Source: Candidatus Parcubacteria bacterium (GTDB taxonomy: Bacteria > Patescibacteriota > Minisyncoccia > SURF-38). Taken from it: a stretch of 58,395 nt of DNA. The notes below the pieces were generated by a model. That model searched no databases, was not told the origin of the DNA, and saw nothing but the letters and a program-made list of their open reading frames with translations. Position 1 is the first letter of the stretch. Each line of letters opens with the position of its first letter. The stretch is taken from positions 1-58,395 of the forward strand of contig QZJN01000005.1 in NCBI GenBank assembly GCA_003599335.1, read 5' to 3'. Both the position numbers and the translations under genes were made by a program. Of the stretch, positions 6,251-45,939 are shown piece by piece.

Positions 6251-7474
6251 ATGAATACGAATCACTCAAATAAAAACCAAATACTCATTGATTCGAGAAG
6301 AGTTGATAAAATTTATCCCTCGAAGGAAGCGTTTATAAAAGCCGTGAGCGAAGGAGGAAAAATTACAGTTTATAATGGGATAGACCCAACAGCCTCGTCG
6401 TTGCACCTGGGACATCTCGCGCAGATGCTTTTTCTCAAAAGATTTCAAGCTCTTGGTCATAAGGTTATCTTTCTCGTGGGTGATTTTACAGCGCGCGTCG
6501 GAGATCCAACCGGTAGATTGTCTTCGCGCAAGGTTTTATCAGAAAAAGAAATAAAAGAAAACCTGAAAACGTATAAACAACAGGCCTCGCGGGTGCTAAG
6601 TTTTTCCGGAAAGAATCCAGCAAAAATCGAATTTAACAGTCGTTGGTTAAGCAAACTTAAGCTTGGAGAATTCATAAAAATTGCAGAGAAATTCACGATT
6701 AACCAGATGATAAAAAGAGATATGTTTCAGAGACGGCTCAAAGAGGGAAAAGAAATTCATTTTAACGAGTTTATATACCCACTTCTTCAAGGTTATGATT
6801 CCGTTGCCTTAGATACAGACGCCGAGGTTGGGGGAACCGACCAAACTTTTAATATGTTGGCGGGTCGTGACTTGGTTAAAATTTATAAGAATAAAGAGAA
6901 GTTTGTTTTTGCAACACATCTTCTTGTTAACCCAAAAACTGGCCAAAAACTAATGTCAAAAAGCGAGGGAGGATATGTGTCTTTGGATGACAAGCCAGAT
7001 TTAATGTTTGGTAAAATCATGGCCCTGCCAGATGAAACCCTAATCACTTGTTTTAAACTTTGTACCGAAGTGCCAGATGGAGATATTTCAAAAATAGAGA
7101 AGGGTTTGAACAACAACGAGTTTAATCCGAGAGATATCAAGGCTAGGTTAGCCAAAGAGATTATAACAATCATTTATGGCGGCAAGGCCGCACAAAGAGC
7201 AGAAGAGCAGTTTGACGAGATTTTTAGGAAGAAAGTTCCTCCTAAAAATTCAGCCGTATATAAGTTCGGGGGCGGTCCCGAACCATCAATAATGGAAGTT
7301 TTGGTTGGGTCAAAGATTGTATCGTCTCGATCAGCGGCGACAAGGCTTATAAAAGGAGGAGCTGTGGATGTTGATGGAAAAAGATGGACCGACTTGAAGA
7401 AAAAAATTCCAATCCCGACAAACATCAGAATTGGCAAACACGGGTTTTTAAGGGTAGAGGGTAGCGAGAAATAA
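6251..7474 (+). CDS. tyrS: Tyrosyl-tRNA synthetase
   Basis: GIDPTASSLHLGH, YPLLQGYD, GGTDQTFN, LMSKS, C-terminal S4 domain. Confidence 0.98.
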   Translation: MNTNHSNKNQILIDSRRVDKIYPSKEAFIKAVSEGGKITVYNGIDPTASSLHLGHLAQMLFLKRFQALGHKVIFLVGDFTARVGDPTGRLSSRKVLSEKEIKENLKTYKQQASRVLSFSGKNPAKIEFNSRWLSKLKLGEFIKIAEKFTINQMIKRDMFQRRLKEGKEIHFNEFIYPLLQGYDSVALDTDAEVGGTDQTFNMLAGRDLVKIYKNKEKFVFATHLLVNPKTGQKLMSKSEGGYVSLDDKPDLMFGKIMALPDETLITCFKLCTEVPDGDISKIEKGLNNNEFNPRDIKARLAKEIITIIYGGKAAQRAEEQFDEIFRKKVPPKNSAVYKFGGGPEPSIMEVLVGSKIVSSRSAATRLIKGGAVDVDGKRWTDLKKKIPIPTNIRIGKHGFLRVEGSEK

Positions 7475-7508
7475 AAAATTAGTCCGCGTTGACGCGGACT
7501 AATTTTTT
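7473..7508. terminator. Bidirectional intrinsic terminator
   Basis: Perfect IR AAAAAATTAGTCCGCG-TTGA-CGCGGACTAATTTTTT between convergent tyrS and the acidic small ORF. Confidence 0.9.
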
Positions 7509-7612
7509 TATTCTGACTCTTCTTCAAGATCTTCTTCTTCGTTCTCATCGCTTTCCTCACCTTCTTCCATCATTTCATCACTTCCATCAAGATCGTCTTT
7601 TGGTTTTACCAT
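7508..7612 (-). CDS. 34-aa hyper-acidic small protein
   Basis: Manual translation MVKPKDDLDGSDEMMEEGEESDENEEEDLEEESE (19/34 D+E); ATG to TAA, stop abuts the terminator; not in ORF track. Confidence 0.7.
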   Translation of the reverse strand: MVKPKDDLDGSDEMMEEGEESDENEEEDLEEESE

Positions 7613-10859: not shown

Positions 10860-11876
10860 TTAAAGCAAAGAAGTTTGAGAGGAATCGTCTTTTTGATGCG
10901 AAACACCCAGGTGTTTATAGGCAAGTTTTGTCGCGATGCGACCACGGCCGGTTCTTGCTATAAGGCCAAGCTGAAGCAAAAATGGTTCATAAATATCGGC
11001 AATTGTTGATTCTTCTTCTGATGTGGCGGCGGCTAAGCTTTGTAAGCCGACCGGGCCTCCATCAAATTTTGTAATTATCGTTTCGAGAAGCCTTCTATCT
11101 GTCGGTTCCAAGCCAGATTCGTCTATCTCCAAAAGTTCGAGAGCTTTTCTGGATACTCCGCTATCTATCTGATCAACTTCTTTCACCTGGGCATAGTCTC
11201 TCACTCTTTTTAGAAGTCTATTTGCGACGCGCGGAGTGAAGCGGCTTCTTTTGGCTATTTCTTCAACAGCGCTTTTAGCCAGTGTTACATTTAGAGTTTT
11301 TGCCGAATGTTCGACGATTTGCTCTACATCTTTTTGTTCGTAGAAGTTTAGTCGGAAAGTCACACCAAATCTCGAACGAAGCGGTGAAGAAAGCATGCCT
11401 ATGCGCGTGGTGGCTGCAATTAATGTAAAAGGCGGAAGTTGAAGTTGCAAGGTTCTGGCCGAAGGTCCTTTTCCGACAACTATATCAAGCATTCTGGATT
11501 CCATTGCCGGATACAAAATCTCTTCAATAAGTTTGTTGAGTCTATGTGCCTCGTCTATAAAGAGAATGTCTCCAGCTGAAAGGTTGGTAAGTATTGCGGC
11601 CAAGTCGCCTACTTTTTCAATCGCCGGGCCCGAAGTTATTTTTATAGTTGATCCAAGCTCTCGAGCAATAAGATGAGCCAAGGTTGTTTTACCAAGACCA
11701 GCCGGTCCGTACAGGAGGACGTGTTCTATTGGTTCCGAGCGTTTCTTGGCGGCCTCTATCAGAATCTTTAAATTCTGTTTTATCTTTTCCTGACCAACGT
11801 ATTCAGACCACGATTTTGGCCTTAAAATCTGGTCTAAAACAACGTCTTCATTTTTTACCCAAGGGGTTGTTTCCAT
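10860..11876 (-). CDS. ruvB: Holliday junction branch migration ATPase RuvB
   Basis: LRPKSWSEYVGQ, GPAGLGKTTLA, FIDEAHRL, SRFTPRVANRLLKRVRD; ATG at 11876 preferred over TTG at 11888. Confidence 0.99.
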   Translation of the reverse strand: METTPWVKNEDVVLDQILRPKSWSEYVGQEKIKQNLKILIEAAKKRSEPIEHVLLYGPAGLGKTTLAHLIARELGSTIKITSGPAIEKVGDLAAILTNLSAGDILFIDEAHRLNKLIEEILYPAMESRMLDIVVGKGPSARTLQLQLPPFTLIAATTRIGMLSSPLRSRFGVTFRLNFYEQKDVEQIVEHSAKTLNVTLAKSAVEEIAKRSRFTPRVANRLLKRVRDYAQVKEVDQIDSGVSRKALELLEIDESGLEPTDRRLLETIITKFDGGPVGLQSLAAATSEEESTIADIYEPFLLQLGLIARTGRGRIATKLAYKHLGVSHQKDDSSQTSLL

Positions 11877-11881
11877 GGCGC

Positions 11882-11910
11882 TTGACAAGAGGATTTTTAT
11901 TTGTTAGTAT
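11882..11910 (+). promoter_or_regulatory. sigma70 promoter driving intergenic RNA 1
   Basis: TTGACA (11882-87), 17 nt, TAGTAT (11905-10); no + strand ORF follows before pilB. Confidence 0.75.
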
Positions 11911-11916
11911 CTATGT

Positions 11917-12113
11917 ACGCTAAATAAAGCGAAAGGATCTTTAAAAGACCTCATTAATCTGTCGGCGATTAAGGTTAATTTCCTCATTTGGCCTTAAAGG
12001 AGTTTTTCTTAGCTTACGGGCGGGTTGGTTTAGGCTGGCCTGTTCCTCAGAAAGGCTCTTATCTTTTGGCGCTACGCTAAAAGTAAATTGCCGGCGGATT
12101 AGTGGGGTTTTTT
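11917..12113 (+). ncRNA. Structured non-coding RNA 1 (6S-like size; four-way junction)
   Basis: 11943-11970 pairs with 12086-12113 over 28 consecutive bp using G.U wobbles (works only on + strand); inner hairpins 11971-11995, 11998-12060 and 12063-12083; ends in a U-tract; promoter upstream. Confidence 0.75.
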
Positions 12114-12132
12114 ATTTTTTAAGCAACAAAAT

Positions 12133-13809
12133 TTATTGTTCTCCAACAACGCGCTCCAATTCTTCAAGCGTTGTCATAAAATTCAGAACTTTTAGCGCTC
12201 CGTCTTCAATCATTGATATCATTCCTTGTTTTTGAGCCGAATTTTTAATATCTACTTCAGTTGGGCTGCTCAAGATGAGGCGTTCGACATTATCGTCTAT
12301 CTGAAATATTTCAAAGATTCCAATCCTGCCCTTGTAACCTGTTTCGTTACAAGCTGGGCAGCCTTTGGCTTTTGCTAGCATCAGGCTATCAGATACAACA
12401 GGCCTTTTCAAATACTTTTCAGGCATTCCTTCTAATATTCTTTTAATTTTGGCTGCCTGATCCGGCGAAGCCTTTTCTTTTTCAAAACATTTTTGGCAAA
12501 CTTTTCTCACAAGTCTTTGCGCTAAGGCTACGTTGATGGCCGGCGCTATAATTGGAGGTTTTGCTCCCATATCTATAAGTCTTGGGATTGTCCCGGTGGC
12601 TCCGTTTGTATGCAACGTTGAGAATACAAGATGTCCTGTTAAAGAAGCGTGTAGGGCAGTCTCGGCGGTTTCCAAGTCCCTCATTTCGCCAACCAAAATG
12701 ACATCCGGATCCTGACGCAATATTGCCCTTAAGCCGTTACTAAAAGTGTAGCCCTTTTTTGGGTCAACCTGCGTTTGTTCAATGTTTGTGAGGTGGTATT
12801 CGATAGGATCCTCAAGCGTGATTATCTTTAGACCGCCTTCTTCTTCTTTAACCTTTTTTAAACAGGCGTAAAGCGTTGTGGTTTTTCCCGAGCCAGTCGG
12901 CCCAGTAACAAGGACCATGCCGTTTGGTTTGCCGAGTTCTTTGGTTAGTATTTTTTCCTGGAAGTTTTGTAATCCCAAATCCTCAAGTTTTAGACCGATA
13001 ACCTTGGGGTTTAAGATTCTCATAACGGCATTTTCTCCGTAAGGGCCGGGAAGAACCGAGGATCTAATTTCGACTTCGCCCATGGAGGCTTTTATAGAAA
13101 ATCTTCCGTCTTGAGGAGCGTCTTTTATATTTAACTTCATATTAGACAGAAGTTTTATTCGATTGGTTATGAGTTGAAAAAGTCTTGGATTCAAGGTTGC
13201 GATTTCCTGAAGCAGACCATCGATTCTAAAAAGAAGAATGGCTTTTGTCTCTTTTGGTTCTATATGGACATCGGATGCGTCTATCGCCAAGGCTCCGCCT
13301 ATGACCATTTCAAGACTTTCTGAAACTCTTTGTTGCGTAAGCTCCGACAGACGTTCTTTTAGGGTTGATAGGCTCGTGAGCTGTTTTTGGTAGGACTCCA
13401 GAGCGTCTTGGGAAATTTCAAGGACGCTCGTGATTTGTTTTTGTTCTTTTGGAAGCTGTTTGTAGTAATTTAATATACGCTCAATTCCCTGAGGCGAAAC
13501 AAAATAAATATCAAGAGAGTAGTTTTTTTTCAGCGGGGATAAAATATCCTCAATTTCTTTAGTTGGCTTTTTAGCTACCAAAACCGTGAGTTTTGACTCG
13601 CTTTCATAAACCGGCGCAATTAGATTTTCTTTGGCAACCTCTTCGTCTATAAGGCGTAGGGCATCTAACTGAACTTTTACTTTGCGGGCGTCGAGATAGT
13701 TTAGATTGTATTTTTCAGCCAGATTTTGAGCCTCTTTCTCCTGAGCTGTTTCATAGAGGCTTTTAGTCCGGCTTTTTAGCTGTTCGTCTTCAAATTGAGG
13801 CGACTCCAT
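12133..13809 (-). CDS. pilB: Type IV pilus assembly / T2SS GspE-PilB family ATPase
   Basis: ASDVHIEP, PQDGRF, GPTGSGKTTTLY, EDPIEY, LRQDPDVILVGEMRD, HLVFSTLHTN, CxxC..CxxC, GYKGRIGIFE. Confidence 0.92.
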   Translation of the reverse strand: MESPQFEDEQLKSRTKSLYETAQEKEAQNLAEKYNLNYLDARKVKVQLDALRLIDEEVAKENLIAPVYESESKLTVLVAKKPTKEIEDILSPLKKNYSLDIYFVSPQGIERILNYYKQLPKEQKQITSVLEISQDALESYQKQLTSLSTLKERLSELTQQRVSESLEMVIGGALAIDASDVHIEPKETKAILLFRIDGLLQEIATLNPRLFQLITNRIKLLSNMKLNIKDAPQDGRFSIKASMGEVEIRSSVLPGPYGENAVMRILNPKVIGLKLEDLGLQNFQEKILTKELGKPNGMVLVTGPTGSGKTTTLYACLKKVKEEEGGLKIITLEDPIEYHLTNIEQTQVDPKKGYTFSNGLRAILRQDPDVILVGEMRDLETAETALHASLTGHLVFSTLHTNGATGTIPRLIDMGAKPPIIAPAINVALAQRLVRKVCQKCFEKEKASPDQAAKIKRILEGMPEKYLKRPVVSDSLMLAKAKGCPACNETGYKGRIGIFEIFQIDDNVERLILSSPTEVDIKNSAQKQGMISMIEDGALKVLNFMTTLEELERVVGEQ

Positions 13810-30360: not shown

Positions 30361-30918
30361 ATGGGTTCTGTTTTGGCAAAAAGAGCGTCAATGGAAAAAG
30401 CCGATAATAAAAGTCAGGCGGAAAAATTTTTAAGAGCCTACGATCAACTTGTAGAAGGACTTTTTCGTTTTGCTGCTTTTCGGGTTTCAAACAAAGAAAC
30501 AGCCGAGGATCTGGTTTCTCAGGTTTTTCTGCGGACTTGGGAGTATGTCCAAAAAGGCAACGAAGTTCAGCACTGGAAAGTTTTTTTGTACAGAACCCTT
30601 TCCAACCTAGTAGTTGATCATTATCGTTCCAAAAAATACGAAACAAAAAGCCTTGATGGTTTGGGAGATGAAAACAAGTTTGAAATAGTTGACGAGGCAC
30701 AACTTCCTTCGGTAATTCAACAAAACAGCGAAGCCCGTTTGATTGTCGCTTCCTTCGCAAAATTACCGAGCGAGCAGCGCGATATTTTATGGTGGCGTTA
30801 TGTCGAAGATCTTGATGTTTTTGAGATAGCTTCTTTAACAGGTAAGAAACCAGCCAGCGTTTATGTCTCTATACACAGAGCCTTAAAAAAGGCGAGGGCT
30901 ATAAATAGTAAGAAATAG
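30361..30918 (+). CDS. ECF-type RNA polymerase sigma factor
   Basis: Region 2: AEDLVSQVFLRTW...WKVFLYR...NLVVDHYRS; region 4: LP.EQRDIL..RYVEDL...EIA..TGK...SV.V.IHRALKK. Confidence 0.95.
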   Translation: MGSVLAKRASMEKADNKSQAEKFLRAYDQLVEGLFRFAAFRVSNKETAEDLVSQVFLRTWEYVQKGNEVQHWKVFLYRTLSNLVVDHYRSKKYETKSLDGLGDENKFEIVDEAQLPSVIQQNSEARLIVASFAKLPSEQRDILWWRYVEDLDVFEIASLTGKKPASVYVSIHRALKKARAINSKK

Positions 30919-30931
30919 GTTTTTAATTAAT

Positions 30932-33019
30932 ATGGATTTCTTAAAAAATCTAAAAATAAAAAAGGTTTTGAGATTGCTGCGGGGTATTAAACCTTCTCCT
31001 CAATGGGTTTTAATGACTAGGGGTCGTCTTGAAAAACTCGCTGGTTTTGAGGTTAAGCCAAAACGGGAAATTTTTATAGTCAGAAATTTTGTTTTAAAAG
31101 CCGGGGTTGCCTTTGTTGCTTTTGCAATCGCCCTAGTCGGGACTTTTGCGAGTGCCAAGGAGAGTCTTCCAACAGATACTCTTTATCCTTTGAAATTATG
31201 GGGAGAAAGGGTCCAGAAAACCTTGATTTTGGGAGAGCAAAGCAAAGTTGAGTTCGCTTTAAGTTTGGCCGAAAGGCGTTTGAATGAAGCAGAAGAACTG
31301 GCTGCTTTGAAGGATGAAATTTTTGCCAACGAGGAAATAAAAGGAAAGGCTTTGGCAGTCATTGCTCCTTCTGATTCCGATCGAGGGGTTCTTTTAGCTG
31401 TTGAAAATTTTGAAAAACACCTTGGAGATGCCGAAGAGAGATTGGCTAAAATTGTAGACAGGGGAAACATTAACCAAATTTCTAAGATAGCGAAAAAGTT
31501 AGAACAAATTCAGGAGAGACAGCAACGCCTTCAGGAAAAATTAATCGTCCATCTCCCAGAGCTTGCACAGGCCCTTGAAGGAGCCCAAGTTGCATCTATT
31601 GAGGTTCAGAGAAACATAGACCGAGTTATTTTTACAATCAACACAACCGCTTCTTCCGGAGCGACTTCAAGCACGACAACGACGATTAGTTTGCAGAACA
31701 AAAACGCCGATAAAGCCGCTAAGGCCATTGAAAGGGCTGAACATAAAATATCAATCGTTGAAGATAAGCTGGAAAGATTTATTAACTCAACATCATCTGC
31801 TTTTTTCAGATTCAACGACGATGACGATGAAGATGATGATAAAAAATCTTTTGTACCACCGGGCCTTTTGAAGAAATTAAACTTTGAGCCAAATATTGCA
31901 TTTGCCAAGAGCAAGGGCAAAGATAAAATTGAAATAAAGTTCATAGAAAAAGATGATGTTTTTGAAAAACTGGAAGGAGCGAAAGAAAAAATTCTTGAGG
32001 CTAAAGAAAAATTAAACGAAGCCAAGTCTGCTTTTGCAGAAGGGGATTACGTAGAAGCTTATGAGAAGGCAATTGAGGCCTTTAAAAAAGCTGTTGAAGC
32101 CGAAGGAAAAATCAATAAAGGAGTTGGTTTTGGGGTGATTATTTCTCCCGATACCTCGGCGCCGTTAATAACCTCAATTTCGGTTCAGAGCGTCGGGACA
32201 TCTTCTGCGGTTATAAAATGGAGTACCAACGAACTTAGTGATTCGAGGGTTATGTATGGGACAAGCACAAGCTATGGGCTTGTGTCGGAAAATGGCGCTT
32301 TTGTCTTCACTCATTCGCTTTCATTATCTGGTCTTCAACCAAGTACGACATACCATTATAGAGTTATTTCCAATGATAAGTCCGGAAATACGGCGACTTC
32401 TTCTGATCATACATTTACAACAACATCGGCTGCTACAAGTGATACAACGGCGCCAGTGATTTCTTCTGTGGTTGTGAGTGCCGTTGGAACTTCTTCTGCA
32501 ACAATAAGTTGGTTTACAAATGAACCAGCAACTTCTCGCGTAAATTATGGGACAACTTCTTTGTACGGTCTCTTTGCGGTTAAAGACATTCTTGCAACAT
32601 CCCACAGTATTACTCTGAATGGACTGCAGGCTTCGACCTCATATCATTTTCAGGCTCGATCCGTTGATGGTTCGGGCAACATCGCGATTTCTTCAGACGG
32701 AGTGTTTATAACTTCTGGCTTGCCGGATACAACCGCGCCCGTGATTTCTGGAATTTCCGTAAGCGCAGTCTCGACAAGCTCGGCGACGATAAATTGGACA
32801 ACCAATGAGCCGGCCGATTCCTGGGTTGAGTTTGGCACGAGTTCAAGTTACGGCTTGGGTTCCTCAACCTCGGCTCTAGTCACGAATCACTCCATTGGTT
32901 TGTCGGGATTGTTTGAAAACACAATGTATCATTTCAGAATTTCCTCGGCAGACGCTTCCAGCAATACATCTGTTTCTTCAGACAACTCTTTTACCACAGC
33001 TTCAAGTTCAGCAGAGTAA
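30932..33019 (+). CDS. Putative anti-sigma factor: TM + DUF5667-like domain + three fibronectin-III/PAP-N-like repeats
   Basis: SLPTDTLYPLKLWGE.V....A.RRL.EA after a TM; three DT.AP.I....V..V.TSSA.I.W.TNE..S.V.YGT...YG...H...L.GL...T.YH repeats; directly follows the ECF sigma. Confidence 0.85.
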   Translation: MDFLKNLKIKKVLRLLRGIKPSPQWVLMTRGRLEKLAGFEVKPKREIFIVRNFVLKAGVAFVAFAIALVGTFASAKESLPTDTLYPLKLWGERVQKTLILGEQSKVEFALSLAERRLNEAEELAALKDEIFANEEIKGKALAVIAPSDSDRGVLLAVENFEKHLGDAEERLAKIVDRGNINQISKIAKKLEQIQERQQRLQEKLIVHLPELAQALEGAQVASIEVQRNIDRVIFTINTTASSGATSSTTTTISLQNKNADKAAKAIERAEHKISIVEDKLERFINSTSSAFFRFNDDDDEDDDKKSFVPPGLLKKLNFEPNIAFAKSKGKDKIEIKFIEKDDVFEKLEGAKEKILEAKEKLNEAKSAFAEGDYVEAYEKAIEAFKKAVEAEGKINKGVGFGVIISPDTSAPLITSISVQSVGTSSAVIKWSTNELSDSRVMYGTSTSYGLVSENGAFVFTHSLSLSGLQPSTTYHYRVISNDKSGNTATSSDHTFTTTSAATSDTTAPVISSVVVSAVGTSSATISWFTNEPATSRVNYGTTSLYGLFAVKDILATSHSITLNGLQASTSYHFQARSVDGSGNIAISSDGVFITSGLPDTTAPVISGISVSAVSTSSATINWTTNEPADSWVEFGTSSSYGLGSSTSALVTNHSIGLSGLFENTMYHFRISSADASSNTSVSSDNSFTTASSSAE

Positions 33020-33035
33020 ACAAAAGAAAGTAAAC

Positions 33036-33066
33036 AAAAGAGCCCAAAACCAAAAGGGCTTTTTGT
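33036..33066 (+). terminator. Intrinsic terminator
   Basis: AAGAGCCC-AAAACCAAAA-GGGCTTTTTG. Confidence 0.7.
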
Positions 33067-33109
33067 TTTACCATTTTCTTTATTAGCTTTTAGAGTTATT
33101 GTTTAAGAA

Positions 33110-33769
33110 ATGAAAGATATAACATATCGTTTATCTCCCTCAAGTCTTAACTTGCTGCGGGATTGCCCGAGGTGTTTTTGGCTTAAATATCGTCTCAAGA
33201 TTGATCGGCCTTCTTCTCCTTTGGCCAGTATTGCTACAGGTTTGGATTTGAATATAAAAAATTATTTTGGTAAATACCGAGTGAAAGGTTTGTTGCCTCC
33301 GATACTTGAAAAAAAGGTTTCAGGGCGCAACCTCAAGTTGGTTCCAAGGCCCATATCTTTTCTTAAATTCATAGACGAAGAGGGGGTTGTGTTTGTCGGA
33401 AAACTGGATGAAGCTCTTATTTTGGATGACAAATTTTATGCTCCGCTTGACCATAAAACAAGAGCTTCTCCTACTCAAAATGTTCACCAGGCTTATCAGT
33501 TGCAGATGGATGCATACGATCTACTCTTAGAAAAAAATGGTTATAAAACCAAAAACGTTGCCTTTTTGGCATACTTTACACCGCGTTCCGGGGAGCTTCA
33601 TCTGGGTTTTCCTTTTGATTTAGATTTGAAAGAAATAAAAACTTCGCCTCAGCGCGCTCAAGATTTCATAAATAAAGCTAAAGATACGCTTCTTTCAGAA
33701 GACATTCCGGTTGCAAGCCCGACTTGCCAATTTTGCGGGTACATTAACAGACTTAGCGAAACTCTTTAA
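33110..33769 (+). CDS. PD-(D/E)XK nuclease, Cas4/AddB-like (PDDEXK_1)
   Basis: LSPSSLNL..DCPRCFW, GKLDE.L....LDHKT, QL..Y, C-terminal CQFC. Confidence 0.9.
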   Translation: MKDITYRLSPSSLNLLRDCPRCFWLKYRLKIDRPSSPLASIATGLDLNIKNYFGKYRVKGLLPPILEKKVSGRNLKLVPRPISFLKFIDEEGVVFVGKLDEALILDDKFYAPLDHKTRASPTQNVHQAYQLQMDAYDLLLEKNGYKTKNVAFLAYFTPRSGELHLGFPFDLDLKEIKTSPQRAQDFINKAKDTLLSEDIPVASPTCQFCGYINRLSETL

Positions 33770-33803: not shown

Positions 33804-33831
33804 TTGCAATAGATTTTAGTTGAGCTAAAAT
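33804..33831 (+). promoter_or_regulatory. sigma70-like promoter (16-nt spacer) overlapped by two inverted repeats
   Basis: TTGCAA (33804-09), 16 nt, TAAAAT (33826-31); IRs ATTGC/GCAAT (33795-810) and ATTTTAG/CTAAAAT (33813-31). Confidence 0.55.
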
Positions 33832-33837
33832 TAAATC

Positions 33838-34025
33838 AGAGGGAAAGGCCAAATGAGGAAAACTTAATCGTCAAAAAGCTCCGGACCCTCGGTAGTTCTT
33901 CTCGCTGGATATCCAGCATTCTCATAGCTCTTTTCTTTTTCAATATAGTTCTTTTCCTGTCGCCACGAGCGGCAGACCCACTCACTTTTTCAACACGAGC
34001 GGCATCTGCCCTCGTGGTCTTTTTT
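33838..34025 (+). ncRNA. Candidate small RNA 2 (5' end complementary to RNA 1)
   Basis: ~190 nt between a promoter-like element and a hairpin+T6 terminator (33994-34025); no ATG-started ORF except MRKT*; 14-bp palindrome at 33904-17; 33845-33872 complementary to 11964-11995. Confidence 0.5.
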
Positions 34026-34109
34026 ACCCATAAAAACTTGACAAATATAAGATTATGTATTATTAGTTAGGTTGGTTCTCAATGGTAAAAACATTCAAGG
34101 AGAAAGAGC

Positions 34110-36099: not shown

Positions 36100-36719
36100 A
36101 ACAAAAACTAACGATAGTTTTGTTAATTATTATTTTTGGCGTCGGCCTTTATTTTTTAATCAGGCCAAAAGACGAAACTAAAGAAAATATGGATTTACAA
36201 AATACCCAGCCGGTCGGTCGTAGTGCGGCAACTCTTAACACCACAATGGGAGAAATAAAGATCGTGTTTTACAACGAAGATGCTCCTCAAACGGTGGCTA
36301 ACTTTATTTCTTTGGCCAGTAAGGATTTTTATAACGGTCTGCCTTTTCACAGAGTGGTTGAGGGGTTTGTGGTACAGGCTGGAGATCCTTTCTGCGCAGA
36401 GCCTCCGCGAGGAACAGGCAGGTGCGGGACAGGAGGGCCTGGGTATAGGTTTGAAGACGAACTTAACCCAAACACCCCTTCTTACAGGGAAGGTTATAAA
36501 AAAGGGGTTGTGGCCATGGCTAATTCCGGTCCCGATACAAACGGTTCCCAGTTTTTTATACTTTTGGAAGACGCGCCTTACCTTCCACACGATTACACTA
36601 TTTTTGGCCGAGTTGTTGAAGGACAAGATGTTGTTGACGCAATGGGCCGTGTTGAAGTCGATGAATCAGAAAGGCCAAAGACGCCCATAGTCATTGAATC
36701 GATTAGAATTGAAAATTGA
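36096..36719 (+). CDS. Membrane-anchored cyclophilin-type peptidyl-prolyl isomerase
   Basis: APQTVANF..LA...FYNGLPFHRVVEGFVVQAGDP, GPGYRFEDE, MANSGPDTNGSQFFI, FGRVVEG. Confidence 0.97.
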   Translation: MKQKLTIVLLIIIFGVGLYFLIRPKDETKENMDLQNTQPVGRSAATLNTTMGEIKIVFYNEDAPQTVANFISLASKDFYNGLPFHRVVEGFVVQAGDPFCAEPPRGTGRCGTGGPGYRFEDELNPNTPSYREGYKKGVVAMANSGPDTNGSQFFILLEDAPYLPHDYTIFGRVVEGQDVVDAMGRVEVDESERPKTPIVIESIRIEN

Positions 36720-43944: not shown

Positions 43945-45939
43945 ATGCAGGTTTTTACTTGTCCGATGCATCCAAATATACAGCGTGAAAAATCCGGACT
44001 TTGTCCCGAGTGTGGGATGAATTTAGTTCAGGCACCAGGCACCAGGCACCAGGAACCAGGGCGATTTGATAAACACGCTGGGCATAGCACTAATATATTC
44101 AAAGCCAAGTTTTGGGTAAGTTTAATTCTATCCATCCCAATAGTTGCATATTCCGACATCGCGCAAAGCCTTGTTGGTTATGAAGCGCCGATATTTTCCG
44201 GCTCCTTGTATATGCCCTTTGTGCTCGCTTCCATAATCTTTTTTTACGGCGGCTGGGTTTTTGTGGCCTCGGCCTATCGCGAGCTTAGGGCTAGGTTGCC
44301 AGGGATGATGACCCTCATTGCGCTTGCAATATCGGTGGCTTATTTTTACAGCGTTGCGGTTGTTTTTCTTGGCAATGGAGAGACCCTATTTTGGGAATTG
44401 GCCACATTGATAACTATAATGTTACTCGGTCATTGGATGGAAATGCGGGCGGTATCTGGCGCTCAAGGCGCCCTCAAGGAATTATCTAACTTGATTCCAG
44501 ACGAGGCAGAAGTTTTAAGAAACGGCACGACGGCAACAGTTTTGCTTTCTGATCTAAAAAAAGGAGATTTGGCGTTTGTAAGACCAGGCGCACGCGTGCC
44601 GGCCGACGGGATTATAAAACAGGGCAATTCAGACATTAACGAATCAATCGTTACCGGAGAATCAAAGCCCGTGAATAAAAAAATAGGGGATGGAGTTATT
44701 GCCGGTGCAACAAATGGCGACGGTTCACTTACTATTGAGATTACAAAAGTCGGTGAGGAAACATTTCTGGCCGGAGTGATGCGTTTGGTGGCAGAGGCAC
44801 AAAGTTCAAAATCCCGTTTGCAGATGTTTTCTGACAGGGCGGCCTTTTACCTCACTATTATCGCTGTTTCAACCGGAGCAATAACGCTTGCAATATGGCT
44901 TGCCCTAGCCGATGCGCCTTTTGCTATCAATCGTATGGTGGCGGTTTTGGTGATTGCCTGCCCGCATGCTCTTGGTCTTGCGATTCCCCTTGTCGCTTCT
45001 ATATCTACAACCAAGGCCGCGAAGAACGGATTTTTAGTAAAACAGCGTTTGGCTCTTGAAGCTGCACGAAGGGTTGATGTTGTGCTGTTTGATAAAACAG
45101 GCACTCTTACTGAAGGAAAATTTAAAGTAGTAAAATCAAGTTCGGATGAGGTTTTGATCTTGGCCGCATCAGTTAATTTTCATTCCGAGCATCCCATTGC
45201 AAAAGCGATGGTGGAGGAAGCGAAGAAAAAACGTTTGCCCTTGCAGGAGGCAACCGGGTTTAAGCGTGTGCCCGGTCTTGGGGCTGAAGCGCTTATTGGT
45301 GGCAAGCGAACATTTGTAGGCACAAAAGGGGGAGACAATATTGTGGTTGAAAGCAATGGAGAAATAATCGGGACAATAGATGTTGTTGATGCCATTCGCC
45401 CCGAGTCAAAAGAAGGGATTAAAAAGCTTAAGGAGGCGGGTGTTAAGGTTTTGATGATAACAGGAGATGGTGAATCAACGGCAAAGAAAGTTGCTCAAGA
45501 ACTTGGGCTTGATGAATATTTTGCTCGTGTGCTTCCGGAAGATAAGGTACACAAAGTCAGAGATTTACAAAATCGCGGATTGAAAGTTGCCATGGTTGGT
45601 GATGGGGTTAACGACGCTCCGGCTCTCACGCAAGCGGACTTGGGCATTGCCATTGGAGCCGGCACCAATGTTGCGATTGAATCTGCGGGTATTATTTTAG
45701 TAAAGGATGATCCGAGGGATATTCCTAAAATTATAAAGCTTTCCCGTATGACTTATACAAAAATGATTCAAAATCTCTTTTGGGCAACCGGATATAATAT
45801 TGTGGCCATACCTTTGGCAGCCGGCGTGTTGGCATTTAAAGGTATATTTTTGCAACCGGCTCTTGCCGCGGTATTTATGTCGCTTTCAACGGTTATTGTT
45901 GCCGTAAACGCCTTGCTTTTGAAAAACAAAAGATTATAA
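43945..45939 (+). CDS. Copper-transporting P1B-type ATPase (CPH motif, CopB-like) with N-terminal heavy-metal-binding domain
   Basis: FTCPMHP...GLCPECGM, TGES, CPHALG, DKTGT, SEHPIA, GDGVNDAPAL, YN and MSLST in the last TMs. Confidence 0.95.
   Translation: MQVFTCPMHPNIQREKSGLCPECGMNLVQAPGTRHQEPGRFDKHAGHSTNIFKAKFWVSLILSIPIVAYSDIAQSLVGYEAPIFSGSLYMPFVLASIIFFYGGWVFVASAYRELRARLPGMMTLIALAISVAYFYSVAVVFLGNGETLFWELATLITIMLLGHWMEMRAVSGAQGALKELSNLIPDEAEVLRNGTTATVLLSDLKKGDLAFVRPGARVPADGIIKQGNSDINESIVTGESKPVNKKIGDGVIAGATNGDGSLTIEITKVGEETFLAGVMRLVAEAQSSKSRLQMFSDRAAFYLTIIAVSTGAITLAIWLALADAPFAINRMVAVLVIACPHALGLAIPLVASISTTKAAKNGFLVKQRLALEAARRVDVVLFDKTGTLTEGKFKVVKSSSDEVLILAASVNFHSEHPIAKAMVEEAKKKRLPLQEATGFKRVPGLGAEALIGGKRTFVGTKGGDNIVVESNGEIIGTIDVVDAIRPESKEGIKKLKEAGVKVLMITGDGESTAKKVAQELGLDEYFARVLPEDKVHKVRDLQNRGLKVAMVGDGVNDAPALTQADLGIAIGAGTNVAIESAGIILVKDDPRDIPKIIKLSRMTYTKMIQNLFWATGYNIVAIPLAAGVLAFKGIFLQPALAAVFMSLSTVIVAVNALLLKNKRL
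44029..44060 (+). repeat. Intragenic 7-nt tandem repeat (CAGGCAC)x3 + CAGGAAC + CAGG
   Basis: Direct reading of sequence. Confidence 0.9.

Follow-up and report, generated by a model that had tools for sequence, protein, structure and literature searches.

The stretch of DNA analysed here (the window) comprises 58,395 nucleotides (nt) of a Candidatus Parcubacteria bacterium contig (QZJN01000005.1) and contains two intergenic loci, 22 kb apart, each with a gene for a small RNA (sRNA) on the forward (+) strand. RNA 1 lies in the gap between ruvB (10860-11888, -) and pilB (12133-13809, -), and RNA 2 lies downstream of a PD-(D/E)XK nuclease gene (33110-33769, +). A segment near the 5' end of RNA 2 is the exact reverse complement of a hairpin loop and adjoining stem arm of RNA 1, and the longest runs that have remained invariant in the two RNAs across five species are complementary to each other. 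We consider it probable that RNA 1 and RNA 2 are independently transcribed sRNAs that engage one another through antisense pairing, as sponge or anti-sRNA pairs do.

RNA 1 (11917-12120, +; predicted ends) is a structured sRNA of ~200 nt with a near-consensus sigma-70-like promoter (11882-11910, +; TTGACA-17-TAGTAT, with a TG upstream of the -10 box) that is conserved in all relatives. The contigs of relatives were fetched through RuvB and PD-(D/E)XK homologs, the best named relatives for RuvB being Candidatus Azambacteria, Sungbacteria and "Patescibacteria group". Homologs of RNA 1 occupy the ruvB-pilB gap in the loci designated L001, L013, L016, L017, L006 and L102. A strict RNA 1 DNA pattern run over the GTDB representative genomes matched three loci, namely true but distant homologs in two metagenome-assembled genomes (L018 and L019) and an apparent chance match (L020). 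The promoter was likewise read in L001, L013, L016, L017, L006, L102 and L019.

The predicted fold of RNA 1 has a minimum free energy (MFE) of -90.1 kcal/mol (z = -9.0). The molecule is enclosed by a closing stem, P1, whose 5' strand (11942-11969) pairs with 12087-12114, giving 26 pairs in the consensus fold and 28 bp in the window MFE structure; the U-run that follows P1 makes a terminator-like end. Within it, a 5' central hairpin, H1 (11970-11996), whose A-U/G.U stem is weak and whose loop has 9 nt (UUUCCUCAU, 11979-87), is followed by an apical stem, H2 (11998-12060), and a 3' central hairpin, H3 (12063-12083), in which pairs 125-144, 127-142 and 128-141 show 4-5 double changes each. Across nine homologs, 27 of the 52 consensus pairs carry compensatory double changes, located in P1, H2 and H3. 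A covariance model built from eight sequences (model core 161 nt) retrieved L102, which had been left out of it, at 112 bits; on the window, the model core falls at 11947-12108 and scores 159.5 bits on the + strand versus 20 bits on the - strand, which, together with the G.U pairs, places RNA 1 on the + strand. Because half of its pairs covary and L102 was found independently, RNA 1 is, on this comparative evidence, a genuine and hitherto unannotated family of structured sRNAs. Neither Rfam, at the gathering threshold and permissively (E<=10 on 11850-12160), nor ARAGORN assigned a known family or tRNA to the locus, and Rfam searches at E<=5 of homolog loci L013, L016 and L018 gave no family match.

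Several further features of RNA 1 deserve mention. The apex of H2 (window 12028-12050; alignment columns 85-107) carries the motif UGGUU-N3-4-GCUGG-N5-UCCU, invariant in all nine homologs; most of the "pairs" predicted for it are G.U and do not vary, so that a role in protein binding or tertiary contacts, instead of a helix, is conceivable. Only ~6 nt separate the -35 box of RNA 1 from the ruvB ATG on the opposite strand, and the order of ruvB, RNA 1 and pilB, with RNA 1 on the other strand from both of its neighbours, is retained even in the distant metagenome-assembled genomes (examined in window 11870-11917, L001, L013, L016, L017, L018, L019 and L102). No minus-strand promoter was detected in the ruvB-pilB gap, and, as predicted from this layout, any ruvB leader or pilB-ruvB read-through transcript must be antisense to RNA 1. 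Such an obligatory overlap may be the reason for the fixed ruvB-RNA 1-pilB synteny, and RNA 1 may possibly act in cis on ruvB. The leader that precedes P1 measures ~25 nt in the clade of the window (window 11925-11960), compared with ~110-130 nt in L006 (9800-9910) and L102 (9735-9860), where the conserved promoter sits much further upstream.

RNA 2 (33838-34026, +; predicted ends) is a predicted non-coding sRNA of ~190 nt with a weaker fold than that of RNA 1 (MFE z = -4.3). Its promoter (33804-33831, +) reads TTGCAA-16-TAAAAT, and its terminator (33962-34026, +) consists of a G+C-rich stem followed by a U-run. Homologs with promoter, seed and terminator were found 3' of the PD-(D/E)XK gene in L007, L012 (with one gene inserted), L014 and L015; in all five species the -35 and -10 boxes (the former as GTTGCRA in five of five) and the G+C stem with its U-run are kept, which marks RNA 2 as an intergenic, non-coding unit with its own promoter and intrinsic terminator. 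The presumed seed (AAGGCCAAAUGAGGAAA, 33845-33861, +) has an invariant core (CCAAAUGAGG) at 33849-33858, and a mini open reading frame (ORF), MRKT* (ATG AGG AAA ACT TAA, 33853-33867, +), starts inside it. Among the RNA 2 genes, the spacing between the seed and the -10 box ranges from 10 to 25 nt. Rfam, at gathering and permissive thresholds, and ARAGORN identified no known family and no tRNA at this locus, and no conserved ORF was found on either strand of RNA 2 among the five species. Two other identities for the locus were tried and rejected: a minus-strand ORF of 49 codons' worth of protein (49 aa, 33836-33985) has nothing similar conserved in the relatives, and descent of RNA 2 from RNA 1 as a degenerate paralog finds no covariance-model match.

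The surroundings of RNA 2 offer observations of their own. A conserved block on its 5' side (window 30361-33769; L007 7226-10651) encodes an extracytoplasmic function (ECF)-type sigma factor (Sigma70_r2/r4_2), a large DUF5667/fn3 protein and the PD-(D/E)XK nuclease, and the atypical RNA 2 promoter (GTTGCRA-16-TACACT/TAAAAT) could depend on this neighbouring sigma factor. In L007, past the RNA 2 terminator, a strong TTGACA-17-TATACT promoter and a leader of ~150 nt (region 10895-11085) precede an Nfu_N-like gene, and this leader could be another structured RNA. In L012, a long near-perfect hairpin (GCAGTGGGCTTGGGGG ... CCCCCAAGCCCACTGC, 2490-2560) follows a consensus promoter downstream of RNA 2.

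The complementarity itself had been reported in the initial annotation, and both of its helices were borne out. Direct reading and a pattern search confirm that 33845-33861 (+, AAGGCCAAATGAGGAAA) and 11979-11995 (+, TTTCCTCATTTGGCCTT) are reverse complements without a single mismatch, which makes theirs the longest exact long-range inverted match in the window, and direct reading confirms that, past a 1x5 internal loop, a second helix of 9 Watson-Crick pairs and one G.U joins 33863-72 (CTTAATCGTC) to 11964-73 (GGCGATTAAG). On the RNA 1 side, according to both the MFE and the consensus fold, the 17-bp match takes up the 9-nt H1 loop (11979-87) and the H1 3' arm (11988-96); the segment engaged by the second helix (GGCGAUUAAG, 11964-11973, +) takes in the uppermost 6 bp of P1 along with 4 nt at the start of the H1 5' arm, and its counterpart in RNA 2 is CUUAAUCGUC (33863-33872, +). 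The view that both segments belong to promoter-driven intergenic units also held, with sigma-70-like promoters found at both loci. The proposed GAGGG/CCCTC clamp holding the RNA 2 segment open found no support: in the MFE structure, the 5' purine-rich segment pairs with a downstream pyrimidine tract, opening the seed costs ~7 kcal/mol, and no clamp is kept in relatives.

The initial annotation had further reasoned that occurrence of the same 17-mer at many sites would favour a DNA motif. Within the 58 kb, there are two exact sites only. Allowing up to three mismatches, the window holds three matches to the 17-mer against 0.65 expected, a count that includes both true sites, and the sole further one is at 36161, with three mismatches; for a 12-mer with up to two mismatches, eight matches compare with 9.4 expected. 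Thus, no additional targets of either motif above chance were found within the window, and the motif is not a dispersed repeat. At the start of a yidD-like ORF (324-335, - strand, CTCCTTATTTGG), 11 bp with the RNA 2 seed, including one G.U, would be possible, against near matches that overall stand at chance level. Elsewhere, the strongest self-match of the window is an imperfect palindrome of 48 nt (7467-7514), and a gene contains a short GGCACCA tandem repeat (44029-44045).

The weight of the argument lies in the relatives. Five species of one clade provide both RNAs, namely the window, L001/L007, L013/L012, L016/L014 and L017/L015. L001 and L007 derive from a single contig of 88.8 kb, and L016/L014 and L017/L015 each come from one sample. 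The five species share 72-84% identity in RuvB and 68-81% in PD-(D/E)XK, so the loci are neither contamination nor the same organism, and neutral intergenic sequence among them is saturated. Against this background, the longest invariant run of RNA 1 (TTCCTCATTTGGCCTT) spans 16 nt, the next longest being 8, and coincides with the proposed docking site for RNA 2 (UUCCUCAUUUGGCCUU, 11980-11995, +). The longest in RNA 2 (CCAAATGAGG) spans 10 nt and is its sole invariant run of more than 5 nt, the next longest, of 5 nt, being the -35 core; beyond the seed, RNA 2 is effectively unalignable, with 33-58% identity even under identity-maximising alignment. RNA 2 thus has the short conserved region in a fast-evolving transcript that is typical of trans-encoded sRNAs, and the two longest runs are mutually reverse-complementary. 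The 5' arm of H1 differs by species (UUAA, UUUAAC, UGAAA, UAAA) while its loop and 3' arm are invariant, and therefore the constraint exceeds what hairpin formation requires.

Complementarity of 12-17 bp is maintained in the four same-contig or same-sample pairs: 17 bp in the window, 15 bp in L001/L007, 13 bp followed by a U.C mismatch and 3 bp in L016/L014, and 12 bp followed by the same mismatch and 4 bp in L017/L015. The pair L013/L012, drawn from different samples, forms 14 bp including a G.U. Loss of complementarity in relatives that keep both loci, which would have spoken against a functional pair, was looked for and did not occur. Of four RNA 2 substitutions that fall within paired segments, three yield G.U wobbles: an A>G in L012 plus, in the extension, a C>U and a U>C. 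Outside the clade, P1, H2 and H3 are retained but the H1 loop is different; L006 and L102 do not share it even with each other, that of L018 is short and unrelated, and H1 is absent from L019.

The pairing also extends beyond the conserved core in lineage-specific ways. In the window, it continues into the top of P1, and in L012 the homologous RNA 2 extension (CUUAAUUGCCG) fits the P1 top of L013 (CGGCGAUUAAG), the C/U and U/C differences between the window and L012 each giving G.U in place of G-C. In L001/L007, an extra 10-bp helix (two G.U) is predicted on the opposite flank, where it joins RNA 2 (AAGGGAUUCC) to the H2 base. Full-length RNAduplex predictions were discarded, as they hybridised the whole molecules (z ~0), and site energies with opening costs were used instead. 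In these approximate, accessibility-corrected estimates, the seed/H1 interaction is the best site in every cognate pair, at -11.2, -10.2, -19.5, -4.2 and -8.8 kcal/mol, and RNA 1s from outside the clade give +3.3 to -6.2 kcal/mol. Opening the H1 loop costs 0.1-2.2 kcal/mol.

With both genes, their strands, the RNA 1 structure, the conservation and complementarity of the blocks and the accessibility of the loop established, antisense pairing between two independent sRNAs is the interpretation that we favour. The RNA 2 seed (CCAAAUGAGG and its flanks) would nucleate on the unpaired H1 loop (UUCCUCAU); the helix would then zip through the weak A-U/G.U 3' arm of H1 to reach 12-17 bp, and a lineage-specific extension would invade a structural helix, the P1 top in the window and L012/L013 or the H2 base in L001/L007. 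The outcome would be mutual antagonism, in which the RNA 1 junction is remodelled or a long duplex is passed to a double-strand RNase, and the RNA 2 seed is sequestered. The meeting of the two RNAs in vivo, the direction of regulation and the downstream effect are what we infer from these features. RNA 1 is the older and more widely distributed partner, with the stronger promoter; RNA 2 seems restricted to the clade and looks like a typical seed-type regulator. That both cores are strictly invariant, and do not covary, suggests that at least one of the two RNAs has additional partners.

A number of observations weigh against this interpretation. Co-variation between the two segments, which the initial annotation had named as a check, was looked for in the relatives and not found: no compensatory change on both sides of the intermolecular helix occurs among the cognate pairs, because the paired cores are invariant. 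For the lone transversion, a G>U found in L014 and L015, the same-sample RNA 1s have no compensating change, which leaves the U.C mismatch. The seed is partly self-paired in some RNA 2s (opening cost 5-8 kcal/mol; 2.4-8.4 kcal/mol across RNA 2s, ~7 kcal/mol for the 10-nt seed in the window). The RNA 2 terminator went uncalled in a simple scan for terminators, and the transcript ends are predictions from consensus signals. As for sampling, L013/L012 is a cross-sample pair, and L101, from the same sample as L013, stops short of the expected RNA 2; a partner complementary to the divergent H1 loops, sought within the L006 and L018 loci, was not found. A metagenome scan that used as anchor the SpoU methylase encoded halfway from RNA 1 to RNA 2 yielded 80 loci, none with RNA 1, RNA 2, RuvB or PD-(D/E)XK. 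Finally, when the match is scored as a local alignment (34-38), about five other long-range matches in the window score similarly. On window evidence alone, the match is suggestive and not significant, in agreement with the initial annotation, which had called a 17-mer match unremarkable by itself; its significance derives from conservation in relatives. Judged by these comparative sequence data, the observation is real and biologically meaningful.

The initial annotation had preferred a more specific version, in which RNA 1 is a 6S-like RNA and RNA 2 a genome-encoded mimic of its product RNAs (pRNAs). The trans-encoded pair has stood, by virtue of its promoter/terminator units and conserved complementary blocks in four pairs; the 6S assignment is an attractive minority hypothesis. 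In this special case of the pairing model, RNA 1 would be the polymerase-sequestering 6S-type RNA of Patescibacteria, and RNA 2 a chromosomal "anti-6S" that, on pairing with the 5' central strand and the P1 top, prevents or reverses polymerase binding without pRNA synthesis. The resemblance is considerable: RNA 1 has a suitable size (~165-200 nt), a consensus sigma-70 promoter and an end-to-end closing stem (P1) opposite an irregular apical stem-loop (H2), as expected of 6S RNAs of ~150-200 nt, and its nine homologs follow a common plan: to the closing stem they add a 5' central strand that has little structure and is not conserved, an apical stem of irregular shape whose invariant motif sits some two helical turns away from the centre, and a 3' central hairpin supported by covariation. 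This layout resembles that described for Bacillus subtilis 6S-1 RNA, which in its free form has a hairpin in the 3' strand of the central bubble (3'-CB) and only weak pairing in the 5' strand (5'-CB) (PMC8876501). In that RNA, pRNA hybrids span the 5'-CB together with the adjacent closing-side helix's 5' strand, and locked nucleic acid (LNA) mimics of only 6-8 nt already impair polymerase binding (PMC8876501); RNA 2 pairing in the window and in L012/L013 covers the equivalent elements.

However, neither Rfam RF00013 nor related covariance models match RNA 1 or its homologs at any of the thresholds given above, including E<=10 in the case of the window. The centre of the clade RNAs is predicted to close, through H1 and H3, into a tight four-way junction whose linkers measure 0-3 nt, and P1 is a near-perfect helix, in contrast to the bulged arms of 6S RNA; across the wider family, however, H3 covaries and H1 is not conserved. 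Real pRNAs pair mostly with the closing-side helix and a few bubble nucleotides, whereas RNA 2 would pair mainly with the whole 5' central strand, and the L001/L007 extension runs toward the apical stem, away from the closing stem, which argues against strict pRNA mimicry. Literature searches brought up no precedent for a genome-encoded pRNA mimic, and we know of none. We therefore regard the anti-6S reading as unlikely; if it were true, a 6S-like RNA 1 with RNA 2 as its antagonist would add a new layer of 6S control.

A different division of roles, also raised in the initial annotation, casts RNA 2 as a tiny mRNA or leader in which the H1 loop of RNA 1 would mask a mini-ORF of 3-5 codons at its AUG and initial codons and so keep it from being translated. 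An ATG-AGG mini-ORF does stand at the seed in all five RNA 2s (MRKT, MRFT, MRT, MRNRS and MRKTG), with purines (GAGG or AAGG) lying 5-9 nt upstream in four of them, and the H1 loop UUCCUC is similar to the anti-Shine-Dalgarno sequence. Yet the length and sequence of the mini-ORF are unconserved outside the seed, L015 lacks a convincing Shine-Dalgarno sequence, and the gene downstream of RNA 2 differs between species; moreover, RNA 2 has its own terminator and the next gene a separate promoter, leaving no obvious downstream gene under control. Translational occlusion is, in our estimation, highly unlikely.

We give similarly little credence to the idea that a single protein recognises the shared sequence as double-stranded DNA, with one copy per gene in opposite orientation and RNA complementarity as a by-product. 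Of the protein-binding motif suggested earlier, the many-copy form is rejected by the chance-level frequency of near matches, and what survives is a two-site operator. Invariant, non-covarying cores are what a protein-recognised motif would display, and the uncompensated transversion in L014 and L015 would pose no difficulty for it. Nevertheless, within the window the motif is confined to these two places, in opposite orientations and at promoter distances (~+5 to +19 in RNA 2, ~+62 in RNA 1) whose variation argues against a fixed operator. The RNA 1 block falls exactly in an exposed hairpin loop, and the lineage-specific flanks stay complementary to the cognate RNA 1 through G.U-type changes that would be meaningless for DNA. 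As to a chance match or a functionless relic of an old inverted duplication, for which the similarly scoring window pairs and an expectation of roughly 0.1-0.2 for a 17-mer in 58 kb could be cited, it is extremely unlikely, because the segments, the most conserved block of each RNA, would otherwise have decayed like their flanks.

If RNA 1 and RNA 2 are indeed an antisense-pairing couple, they would constitute the first candidate for an RNA-on-RNA regulator in Patescibacteria (candidate phyla radiation, CPR), organisms with tiny genomes, and a concrete, testable pair. Literature searches returned no characterised regulatory RNA in this group, and none is known to us. RNA 1 adds a new, widely conserved and covariation-supported structured RNA family, with a strong promoter and a fixed position between ruvB and pilB, that has no Rfam entry, and RNA 2 adds a clade-specific partner sRNA whose seed and the docking loop are mutually complementary and appear to be under strong purifying selection.

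Among known systems, plasmid RNAI/RNAII and CopA/CopT are loop-initiated (kissing) antisense systems that are cis-encoded and fully complementary. The proposed nucleation on an exposed hairpin loop (H1, opening cost <=2.2 kcal/mol), followed by propagation that displaces a weak stem, is akin to theirs; by contrast, RNA 1 and RNA 2 are trans-encoded, their complementarity amounts to 12-17 bp and a short interrupted extension, and the RNA 2 seed lies outside any conserved hairpin loop. Like 6S RNA and its pRNAs (PMC8876501, PMC9670815), the pair joins a rod-like RNA of ~180 nt to another RNA that is complementary to its 5' central strand and its adjacent closing-side helix and whose pairing would refold it; RNA 1 also resembles 6S RNA in size and in the strength of its promoter, and has a closing stem, an apical stem and a 3' central hairpin. 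Unlike pRNAs, which RNA polymerase makes on the 6S RNA template, RNA 2 has a gene of its own at a distance of 22 kb and measures ~190 nt; unlike 6S RNA, RNA 1 has no Rfam 6S match and a predicted closed four-way junction in place of an open bubble, and the extension is reversed in one lineage.

Closest to the interpretation that we favour are the sRNA-sponge pairs, which include SroC-GcvB, 3'ETS-leuZ-RyhB/RybB and AgvB-GcvB. As in RosA-RoxS of Bacillus subtilis (PMC8216469), a short conserved region pairs with an accessible region of a second, independent RNA. The outcome in such pairs is titration and/or co-degradation; for RNA 1 and RNA 2, the predicted net pairing energies are -4 to -20 kcal/mol. 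In contrast to sponge pairs, the partner here is a hairpin loop within a large four-way-junction RNA and not a linear sRNA seed, RNA 1 is much older and more widespread than RNA 2, and neither RNA belongs to a described family. The extended, G.U-tolerant complementarity of RNA 1 and RNA 2 would suit organisms such as Patescibacteria, for which, to our knowledge, no RNA chaperone has been described.

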